From NCBI RefSeq assembly GCF_000026545.1, contig NC_011601.1: a DNA stretch of 64,000 nt, one strand, 5' to 3'. The DNA is from Escherichia coli O127:H6 str. E2348/69 (GTDB lineage Bacteria > Pseudomonadota > Gammaproteobacteria > Enterobacterales > Enterobacteriaceae). Of the stretch, positions 8,534-10,909 are shown one piece after another. Each line of letters begins with the position of its first letter. The stretch's first letter is position 1. The notes under the pieces were generated by a model that ran no database searches, was not told the DNA's origin, and was given only the letters and a program-made list of their open reading frames with translations. The translations under genes and the position numbers were made by a program.

Positions 8534-8630
8534 TGGGTTTGAAATGATTACTCCCTTGCCTGCAGGAAATCAATGCCACCAGAAACAGAGTATAAAAAAG
8601 GGTGCAGGAGACCAAACCATCACAATTCAG

Positions 8631-8650
8631 TACGCGGGGTTTTACCCCGC
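8631..8650 (-). terminator. GC-rich stem-loop (cgcggggttttaccccgcg) just 3' of the hok-like ORF; candidate hok mRNA 3' terminal structure
   Basis: Perfect 7-bp stem with 5-nt loop, 8 nt downstream of the hok stop codon on the minus strand. Confidence 0.35.
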
Positions 8651-8657
8651 GTGGTGG

Positions 8658-8810
8658 CTACTTCTTCGATTCGTAAGCGAGAACTGCCTTAAACTCCATA
8701 CCACGTTCTCTGATACTCAACTCACACAACGAGTCGCCTACCATCAACGTGAATCCCAGTACTGTACAACACAGTACGATGATTGCCACAAGGGCATATT
8801 TTGTCAGCAT
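8658..8810 (-). CDS. Hok/Gef-family type I toxin (50 aa), HokE/HokA-like
   Basis: Minus-strand ATG at 8808-8810 gives [50 protein letters not shown]; single TM helix plus conserved DSLCE...AVLAYE Hok motif; below the 60-aa ORF-track cutoff. Confidence 0.7.
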
Positions 8811-8814
8811 GTCT

Positions 8815-10150
8815 GTGTAAGTTCACAGAGATATTGCAATTGCCTCCGGATAAGTAAGGGGAGATTGCACTATGCAAATGCAGCATCTGATGGTTGGCTA
8901 TCCTAAGTACTACCAAACGGCCGATTATGCGTTGAGGCTTTCAGTGATGGCTGATATAGCAACAATGAGAATGAAGGCTCTGCACTTCTGGGATAAACAC
9001 GGTATTTCTGCAGCTTCTGAAGCCTTTGGCGTGTCCTGCCGCACGCTTTACTGGTGGCGTCAGTTACTGAACAAGGAAGGACCTGAGGGGCTAATCCCGC
9101 ACAGTAAGGCACCTCTGGTGCGACGAAAAAAACACTGGCATCCCGATGTGCTGAAAGAGATTCGACGCCTCAGGACAGAGCTGCCGAACCTCGGTAAAGA
9201 GCAGATTTTTGTTCGCCTGAAGCCCTGGTGCGAACAGCGCTATCTGGCCTGTCCGAGTGTTTCCACCATCGGCAGAATGATCGCTGCCGCACATGATAAA
9301 ATGCGGATGATACCTGTGCGTCTGGGATCGCGGGGGAAGGCACTGCTTGTCAAAAAGCGGTCTGCCAAACCCCGCAGGCCAAAGCACTACCGCCCGGTAA
9401 AGACAGGTGAGCTCATTGGGATGGACGCCATTGAGCTCAGAATGGGCGAACTGCGTCGCTATGTCATCACCATGATCGACGAATGCAGCAATTACGCGCT
9501 GGCGCTGGCTGTGCCGTCACTCAACAGTGATATCGTCAATCACTTCTTCAGCCGCGCAGCCCGGTTGTTCCCGGTCGGTATCAGCCAGATAATCACAGAT
9601 AACGGAAAAGAGTTCCTGGGAAACTTCGACAAAACGCTGCAGGAAGCCGCTATCAAACACCTCTGGACCTATCCCTACACGCCAAAAATGAACGCTATCT
9701 GTGAACGTTTTAACCGGACGTTAAGAGAGCAGTTTATTGAATTTAATGAGATTTTACTCTTTGAAGATCTGGCGCTATTTAACCAGAAGCTGGCGGAATA
9801 TCTGGTGCTGTATAACAGCAAAAGACCCCACAAGGCGCTCGCACTAATGACGCCCGTGGAATATATTTTAAAAGAGAATAAAAATTGCAATATGTGGTGG
9901 ACCCATACAATGTCTTGCCTCCTTGCAAAGAAGAGACTAACATCCGAATTGCTTAGGTTCGAACGTAGGCCTCAGGTTGATAGAAATATCGCCTGGGGCT
10001 TTTGTCCATCTGGAACCTCGCGAATGCTTAACGCCAGACAGCCTCAAGCACCCAACGCCATTCTATACCTGTTAATTTTCCCTGCGATGTTCACCTTTAA
10101 ATGCCGGAATGCTGCTCGCAAAATAAAAACGCCCCATCATTTCTGACAGA
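8815..10150 (+). mobile_element. insertion sequence (boundaries approximate; terminal inverted repeats not confidently identified)
   Basis: Transposase gene in a locus that is otherwise K-12-collinear; left end must lie between the hok start (8810) and tnp start (8872). Confidence 0.4.
8872..10146 (+). CDS. DDE (rve integrase-core) transposase with N-terminal HTH; IS481-family-like single-ORF transposase; C-terminal ~90 aa may be read-through
   Basis: 424-aa ORF with HTH (GVSCRTLYWWRQ) followed by rve motifs (ITDNGKEF, NSKRPHKAL); sits where the cas genes are in K-12. Confidence 0.7.
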   Translation: MQMQHLMVGYPKYYQTADYALRLSVMADIATMRMKALHFWDKHGISAASEAFGVSCRTLYWWRQLLNKEGPEGLIPHSKAPLVRRKKHWHPDVLKEIRRLRTELPNLGKEQIFVRLKPWCEQRYLACPSVSTIGRMIAAAHDKMRMIPVRLGSRGKALLVKKRSAKPRRPKHYRPVKTGELIGMDAIELRMGELRRYVITMIDECSNYALALAVPSLNSDIVNHFFSRAARLFPVGISQIITDNGKEFLGNFDKTLQEAAIKHLWTYPYTPKMNAICERFNRTLREQFIEFNEILLFEDLALFNQKLAEYLVLYNSKRPHKALALMTPVEYILKENKNCNMWWTHTMSCLLAKKRLTSELLRFERRPQVDRNIAWGFCPSGTSRMLNARQPQAPNAILYLLIFPAMFTFKCRNAARKIKTPHHF

Positions 10151-10174
10151 GGCGTTTAATTTATCCGGCAATAT

Positions 10175-10909
10175 TTACCCTTCGTGTAATCCACATTCCC
10201 TTTTTAAGCCAAAGAAACGCGTTTCTTCTTCCGCCATGCCGGGTTCCCATTTACGGGTTGTATGGGTATCGCCCACCGATAAATATCCTTCATCCCATAA
10301 TGGGTGATATTTCAGGCCATGTTTTTGCAGGTACTGATAAATAGTTCGGTTATCCCAGTCGATAATCGGCAGCACTTTAAATACGCCACGCTGAATTGCC
10401 AGCACCGGTAAATTGGCGCGACTGCCGGATTGTTCACGGCGCAGGCCAGCAAACCAGGTTTGCGCATTCAGTTCTTTCAGCGCCCGGTTCATCGGTTCGA
10501 CTTTGTTGATGTCATTGTACTTTTCAATGCCTTCAACGCCCTGCTCCCACAGTTTGCCGTAGCGTGCTTCCTGCCAGGCGGCGCTTTCGGTAGCACGATA
10601 CACTTTCAGGTTGAGCTTGAGTTTGTCCGTTAACTCGTCAATAAAGCGGTAGGTTTCCGGGAACAGATAGCCGGTATCGGTGAGGATCACTGGAATATCC
10701 GGGCGAATCTGATTCACCAGATGCAGACTCACCGCCGCCTGAATGCCAAAGCTGGAAGAAAGTACATATTCACCGGGCAGATTATCCAGCGCCCAGGCTA
10801 CGCGGCCTTCAGCGTCCAGTTTTTCCAGTTGGGCGTTAGTTTCCGCCAGCGCCAGAATCCGGTCTACCTTTGGCAGTTCGTTCAGGGCGTTTAGATCGAG
10901 TTTGGACAT
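10175..10909 (-). CDS. cysH: phosphoadenosine phosphosulfate (PAPS) reductase
   Basis: 244 aa [27 protein letters not shown]... ending ...ECGLHEG; start taken at the internal Met of track ORF 10175..11062. Confidence 0.9.

Follow-up and report, generated by a model that had tools for sequence, protein, structure and literature searches.

The stretch of DNA considered here lies in the chromosome of Escherichia coli O127:H6 strain E2348/69, within a window (the whole stretch that was analysed) of 64,000 nucleotides, whose positions 8534–10174 are 100% identical to that strain. RefSeq places iap, a Hok/Gef family protein and cysH here, together with an open reading frame (ORF) for a transposase, which it names 'integrase core domain-containing protein' and marks as a pseudogene, 'missing C-terminus'. 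The transposase ORF (8872–10146) is uninterrupted and spans 424 amino acids (aa), and an original prediction, made from the letters of the sequence, had singled out its unusual C-terminal extension. The preferred explanation, held with high confidence, is that an IS481-family insertion sequence (IS) lacking a stop codon has inserted into a hok/sok toxin-antitoxin locus, and that the tail of the ORF is accidental read-through of the flanking DNA. The locus is composed of the following features, numbered by position in the window.

8814–9909, plus strand: IS481-family insertion sequence, a relative of ISKpn28; 1,096 bp, a common unit in unrelated flanks, for which empty sites exist
8814–8841, plus strand: left terminal inverted repeat (IRL), TGTGTAAGTTCACAGAGATATTGCAATT
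9883–9909, plus strand: right terminal inverted repeat (IRR), AATTGCAATATGTGGTGGACCCATACA, encoding the last IS residues NCNMWWTHT
8809–8813, no strand: target-site duplication ATGTC, left copy, sharing A and T with the start codon of hok
9910–9914, no strand: target-site duplication ATGTC, right copy, from the junction sequences
8872–9909, plus strand: IS-encoded part of the transposase, 346 codons without a stop; Pfam rve, rve_3 and an N-terminal helix-turn-helix, NCBIfam IS481
9910–10146, plus strand: read-through tail, 78 codons and TGA over host DNA, of site-dependent length
8658–8810, minus strand: hok toxin coding sequence (CDS), 50 aa, Hok/Gef family; Pfam HOK_GEF 39.1 bits (cutoff 22), start codon 8810–8808
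9915–10053, minus strand: hok mRNA leader, natively just upstream of hok, with the ribosome-binding site (RBS) GGAGG (plus-strand CCTCC, 9918–9922); Rfam sok match
9915–9943, plus strand: probable Sok promoter, -35 TTGCCT at 9915–9920 and -10 TAACAT at 9938–9943, the -35 abutting the duplication
9951–10009, plus strand: Sok antisense RNA gene with terminator hairpin, homologue of K-12 sokX, whose annotated gene maps here
10118–10157, minus strand: hairpin (10127–10157) and T-run (10118–10126) just downstream of cysH, with the read-through stop (10144–10146) inside
10175–10909, minus strand: cysH, the right-hand neighbour (RefSeq annotation)

The ends of the element are defined by its other copies. 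BLAST of positions 8811–9920 against 5,426 complete E. coli genomes returned hundreds of IS copies in unrelated places, with matches running from query positions 3–5 to 1099–1102, equivalent to 8813–8815 and 9909–9912 of the window, and with a plasmid copy of 100% identity matching exactly 8814–9909. Junctions of the galF–yegH copy, of a prophage copy and of copies on an IncI1 plasmid and on ColV-type plasmids delimit one common 1,096-bp unit, present in unrelated flanks (loci L002, L003, L011 and L013 among them), which starts with TGTGTAAGTTCACAG, ends with GGACCCATACA and carries the tips TGT...ACA. IRL opens with TGTGTAAG and IRR, in reverse complement, with TGTATGGG; the repeats are imperfect, matching at ca. 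20 of 28 positions in a hand alignment, while holding in common a perfect 11-bp core, AATTGCAATAT. The IRR sequence, which falls within the flagged interval (9880–10174), is unique within the window, with 0 chance matches expected. Genomes free of the IS (Nissle 1917 and two others) contain a single ATGTC, reading CAGCATGTCTTGCC / TTTTGTCAGCATGTCTTGCCTCC, and this uninterrupted site is carried by 4,145 genomes, in which 9915–10174 is contiguous with hok. Perfect 5-bp duplications were found at 16 distinct simple insertions, and most simple insertions have one. As both an inverted repeat and a 5-bp duplication are present, the right boundary of the IS is placed at 9909/9910. The original prediction, which had seen no convincing terminal inverted repeat and had left this boundary unresolved, was therefore wrong on the former point and is superseded on the latter.

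The long extension of the ORF arises because the element does not contain a stop codon for its transposase. Each full-length 1,096-bp copy contains 346 codons with a remainder of 0, the last codon, ACA, falling at the IRR tip, and in none is there a stop. In the window, homology to transposases ends at residue 328 (Pfam rve_3) or residue 331 (NCBIfam IS481); VEYIL occupies residues 329–333, and 91 codons follow, agreeing with the earlier estimate of about 90 codons past the rve domain. The first 13 of these (codons 334–346, KENKNCNMWWTHT) are encoded by the IS, within IRR, and are identical across the other E. coli-type copies compared, with ESKNCNMWWPHT as their counterpart in ISKpn28. The remaining 78 (9910–10143) are encoded by the flank. 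This 78-codon tail matches no NCBIfam family, and Pfam matches on the whole 424-aa ORF do not reach beyond residue 331, in keeping with the first impression that the extension does not resemble a protein domain. Between the last base of the ORF stop codon (10146) and the first of the cysH stop (10175) lie 28 nt rather than 29 bp, and the reported closeness to cysH holds.

Tail length varies with the site of insertion. It is 2 aa in L002, L047 and L049 (TTGA sites with an in-frame TGA), 13 aa in L051, 16 aa in L013, in L050 and in ISKpn28 itself (L011), 78 aa in the window and 132 aa in L009, an O103:H2 strain with the insertion at the same chromosomal site. The tail is 78 rather than 132 aa long because of a 1-nt difference in a run of C between E2348/69 and L009, with positions 10128–10131, in the hairpin beside cysH, reading CCCC in E2348/69 and CCCCC in five other E. 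coli including K-12. Substitutions in the tail region among six genomes are distributed 11/5/5 over codon positions 1/2/3, the reverse of a coding pattern. The tail is thus an annotation artefact of geometry and not a domain. The length of the transposase ORF is consequently uninformative on the element boundary, which explains annotations that are over-long or read 'pseudogene, missing C-terminus'. In the galF–yegH copy (L003 and L005) the open frame runs in phase into yegH. This copy (1560 to beyond 2667), present in many E. coli upstream of yegH, is older, at ca. 94% identity, and has no stop between the transposase frame and yegH, giving a predicted transposase-YegH fusion ORF. IS copies at 90–95% identity, at whatever site, amount to 1,118 records.

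Assignment to the IS481 family is based on the NCBIfam score, on the TGT ends and size, and on the RefSeq names of relatives. NCBIfam NF033577 (IS481) matches with 221.6 bits over profile positions 2–283 of 284, against a curated cutoff of 224, the next family being IS3 with 98 bits. Pfam finds rve, rve_3 and a weak LZ_Tnp_IS481 match on the transposase, in which D185, D243 and E278 were picked by inspection as candidate DDE residues. RefSeq names relatives 'IS481-like element ISKpn28 family transposase' and, under some hokD-type junctions, 'IS481 family transposase'. The element has the features typical of the family, namely a length of ca. 1–1.3 kb, one ORF, TGT-ended repeats, a short duplication and a frame open at the 3' end. 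None of the target duplications contains CTAG; lacking NCTAGN, the element differs from the IS481 type in the strict sense, which is no argument against its place in the wider family.

The DNA that received the element is a member of the hok/sok group, disrupted by an IS lying between the hok RBS and the hok start codon. Rfam RF01794 'sok' matches the minus strand at 9904–10053 with 104.6 bits (E = 3.6e-24, gathering score 59), the last ca. 10 nt of the match straying into the IS tip by chance. Positions 9969–10053 are invariant in the six genomes compared, and 9951–10009 fold into a terminator-like hairpin (-25.6 kcal/mol, z = -3.7). The Sok promoter is assigned from the mapped 5' end of K-12 sokX and a 17-nt spacing. 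In empty sites the native hok-strand sequence reads GGGAGGCAAGACATG, with TTTGCAGGGAGGCAAGAC before the ATG. In the window the sequence before the hok ATG is IS-derived, CTTACACAGAC, and 1,101 bp (the IS and one copy of the duplication) now separate GGAGG from the start codon, so that the two are no longer contiguous. Of the 5,426 complete E. coli genomes, all but one (5,425) match the hok/sok leader (sokX) sequence over some or all of its length, whether they have cas genes or not, and in almost all E. coli this region is free of the IS. According to a published survey, hok together with sokX is found beside cysH in 90% of uropathogenic strains, with sokX alone in K-12-like strains (PMC12736100).

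The hairpin beside the end of the ORF, which the original prediction had also noted, is real. It lies on the minus strand at 10127–10157, where a stem of 13 bp closes a GAAA loop and UUUUUAUUUU comes next (-22.3 kcal/mol, z = -4.3). It follows the end of cysH at a distance of 18 nt and is conserved in K-12 too; from its position and form it is the probable intrinsic terminator of cysJIH.

In the proposed course of events, a 1,096-bp IS would have inserted, with duplication of ATGTC, between the RBS of the chromosomal hok gene near cysH and its start codon. The transposase frame would exit at the last base of IRR and end wherever the flank supplies a stop. At the preferred target, 5 bp followed by TTGA, an in-frame TGA would give a 348-aa protein. 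The flank in the window begins with TTGC, over which the frame would run for 78 codons, across the hok leader and sok, to stop in the cysH terminator hairpin. Judging from this geometry, hok, now 1.1 kb from its RBS, leader and promoter, is probably silenced or untranslated. The Sok promoter and gene, which start right after the duplication, would have been left whole, and sok expression probably continues. Transcription started at the hok promoter would now proceed into the IS, antisense to the transposase gene, and that of the transposase would exit it in the Sok sense. For E2348/69, the reference strain for enteropathogenic E. coli, this means that the hok gene by cysH is uncoupled from its regulatory leader.

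Several points weigh against this explanation. The silencing of hok and the continued expression of Sok are drawn from geometry; the NCBIfam IS481 score is 2.4 bits under the curated cutoff of 224; the 424-aa product is a predicted protein; and the Sok promoter hexamers are under the threshold of the consensus promoter scan (8/12 matches), which called neither the Sok promoter nor the hok promoter. The flagged extension is nevertheless fully explained by known biology, and as a finding it is ordinary.

A further question relates to the choice of target. Target sites were sampled from E. coli records as well as from contigs of viral and metagenomic origin; the 108 right flanks obtained represent 38 independent sites. 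TTG occupies positions 6–8 past the IS tip, right after the 5-bp duplication, at 20 of the 38, compared with ca. 0.6 expected (binomial p ~2e-26). TTGA is present at 9 sites, where it gives an in-frame TGA and a 348-aa transposase, and TTGC at 9 sites, where it gives read-through. No matching motif or consensus was evident in the left flanks on inspection; a symmetric CAA-N5-TTG target was accordingly rejected in favor of a one-sided preference. At hok/sok loci the TTGC/TTGA motif would form the -35 hexamer of the probable Sok promoter, which overlaps the hok RBS. The TTGC/TTGA target motif resembles the TTGCAA core of the element's inverted repeats, and the sequences suggest that the end-binding domain of the transposase may also select the target. 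A scan for IRR in one genome per species gave two loci only, which did not suffice for a target logo. One was in Escherichia ruysiae. The other, a contig of 566 bp labelled Streptomyces malaysiensis (L014, NZ_BAAAHF010000206.1), carries an exact enterobacterial IRR and a hok-leader-like flank, and most likely represents contamination of the Streptomyces assembly.

Four Hok-family genes have, at most 15 nt ahead of their start codons, a copy sharing at least 99.9% DNA identity with the window element, and the duplication differs from gene to gene:

hokX type (window): duplication ATGTC
hokD type (prophage): duplication TCTCC
hok paralogue at L051: duplication CCTCC
hok paralogue at L050: duplication AGCAC

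As the IS copies are nearly identical but their duplications differ, the insertions were probably separate events, which points to a hot spot. The hokX insertion is present in 35 complete genomes and the hokD-type junction in 53. ISKpn28-type copies are located at the same spot at two plasmid-type hok genes (L079 and L086) and at the sok leader of L092, whose left side yielded no hok ORF. Combined, the IS lineage occupies the interval between RBS and start codon of at least six hok paralogues, of chromosome, prophage and plasmid types. Pfam HOK_GEF is matched by the Hok candidates beside L013, L079, L086, L050 and L107, and Rfam sok lies immediately to the right of the IS in L013, L023, L092, L099, L051 and L097.

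On this basis it is tentatively proposed that the IS lineage, comprising the E. coli element and ISKpn28, has a sequence-directed preference for TTGC/TTGA 5 bp from the joint, and may act as a recurrent, near-site-specific disarmer of Hok-type toxins that severs the toxin from its translation signals and spares the antitoxin, on chromosomes, prophages and plasmids alike. The association with hok could instead result from recombination or gene conversion among hok paralogues, or from survival bias, with no intrinsic target preference involved. The hok paralogues do share a conserved RBS and sok -35 sequence, several loci have mismatched flanks that point to recombination between IS copies, and insertions that destroyed sok but spared hok would be lethal and never seen. 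Such an origin is nonetheless unlikely, given that copies at least 99.9% identical occur in four hok paralogues with four different duplications, that TTG also occurs at sites not flagged as hok-associated (L002, L047, L049, L080, L025 and L029), and that its count of 20 among 38 independent sites far exceeds the ca. 0.6 expected. If target choice by the element is true, it provides a simple natural route for neutralising type I toxins, including those of plasmid-stabilising hok/sok modules. Targeting of hok by IS481/ISKpn28-type elements was not found reported in a limited set of literature, which is not proof of novelty; novelty, if any, is confined to the one-sided rule of 5 bp plus TTG and the repeated insertions at hok starts.

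A locus of another type I family was also encountered. In L061 (ca. 1990–2099) an IS copy ends ca. 35 nt upstream of the gene for the rdlD antisense RNA (Rfam, 87.6 bits). Its left flank comes from another site, making this a recombinant locus.

With regards to the flank at 9910–10174, it might be held to be a degenerate remnant of a CRISPR-cas (cas3) deletion, perhaps driven by the IS, and the original prediction had likewise read the region as the 3' end of an IS plus a relic of cas3-proximal sequence. The first half of that reading stands, since 9880–9909 is the IS end; 9910–10174 is native host flank, but it is a hok/sok leader and not a cas3 relic. The flank does align to the cas3–cysH intergenic region of K-12, being ca. 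93% identical over the distance from hok's start codon to cysH, and the interval between iap and cysH in E2348/69 is free of cas genes. Against a remnant, the order hok–leader–cysH occurs free of the IS both in strains lacking cas (Nissle, L007) and in strains with cas3 (L008), and the identical IS insertion is found in cas3-positive O103:H2 strains (L009). The perfect 5-bp duplication denotes a simple insertion with no adjacent deletion, no sequence is missing by comparison with IS-free relatives, and the flank is a functional RNA element (Rfam sok) with 9969–10053 invariant, leaving a cas3 remnant very improbable.

The K-12 sokX region is similar in carrying the homologous leader and sok, ca. 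93% identical. It differs with respect to the toxin, as the hok CDS is absent from K-12 and from 1,172 genomes sharing its cas3-upstream junction (PMC12736100), whereas E2348/69 keeps hok, displaced by the IS. Homology to K-12 (L006 11300–11320, compared with window 9905–9915) sets in exactly with the start codon of hok (CATGTC), at a distance of 1 nt from where the IS inserted. Whether the K-12 junction (CAGTGATATACA joined to CATGTC) derives from the end of a related IS at the same spot was considered and set aside, the resemblance to IRL (ca. 11 of 12 positions, with a 3-nt gap) being too short. No junction intermediates were found, all 1,172 K-12-junction genomes being alike. The DNA upstream of cas3 in K-12 shows no similarity to the cas3–hok spacer of O103:H2, and the two are different type I-E variants.

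That the tail is instead a genuine C-terminal domain of a ca. 424-aa transposase, with the IS reaching ca. 10150 beside the hairpin, has in its favor a single uninterrupted 424-aa ORF and a hairpin at 10127–10157 superficially like an IS end, but is refuted by empty sites and variable tails and is next to impossible: all other copies end at the equivalent of 9909 with differing tails, 9915–10174 is contiguous with hok in the 4,145 IS-free genomes, the tail has neither an NCBIfam match nor third-position bias, a 1-nt indel suffices to make it 132 aa long at the same site in L009, and neither a colinear transposase of ca. 424 aa nor an IRR at ca. 10150 was found.

Read-through from a stop-less IS inserted in a hok/sok locus therefore remains the favored explanation, and it can be set beside known systems from the side of the host and from that of the element. 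On the host side, Pedersen and Gerdes are said to have described in 1999 that IS150 and IS186 inactivate the hokA, hokC and hokE loci of K-12, ca. 22 bp downstream of the hok frame. In both situations a chromosomal type I toxin-antitoxin locus is disabled by an IS. The window element differs from the IS150 and IS186 cases in its placement 3 bp upstream of the start codon, where it parts hok from its RBS and leader. A placement like the one reported for K-12 is seen in strain MSB1_8G (L010 334–1675), which has an IS4-like IS421 ca. 20 bp downstream of the same hok gene.

On the side of the element, the closest relative considered is ISKpn28 of Klebsiella pneumoniae, an IS481-family member of ca. 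1,100 bp with the same inverted-repeat core (PMC6101004). It resembles the window element in its length of 1,096 bp (L011), its inverted-repeat core (ATATTGCAATT/AATTGCAATAT), its stop-less frame of 346 codons and its preference for TTG and for hok sites. It differs in having only ca. 75% DNA identity (80% in protein) to the window element; the E. coli element is taken to be a distinct sister IS of ISKpn28. The IS481 type, ISLxc2, ISLxx4 and ISRe46/TnRErm46 are more widely comparable, sharing a length of ca. 1.1 kb, a single DDE (rve) transposase and TGT repeats (PMC2516522; PMC6794481). Stop codons supplied by the target have been described within the IS481 family for ISLxc2 and ISLxx4 (PMC2516522) and for ISRe46 (PMC6794481), in which the duplicated NCTAGN gives TAG. 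As in the window element, the frame of these IS481-family elements crosses IRR and is closed by target DNA. Their duplication is the 6-bp NCTAGN, whose internal TAG always closes the frame, whereas the window element has a 5-bp duplication without consensus and receives a TGA from a TTGA just outside it at 9 of 38 sites. Since the TGA is available at some sites only, TTGC sites such as that of the window give rise to tails of between 13 and more than 100 aa.

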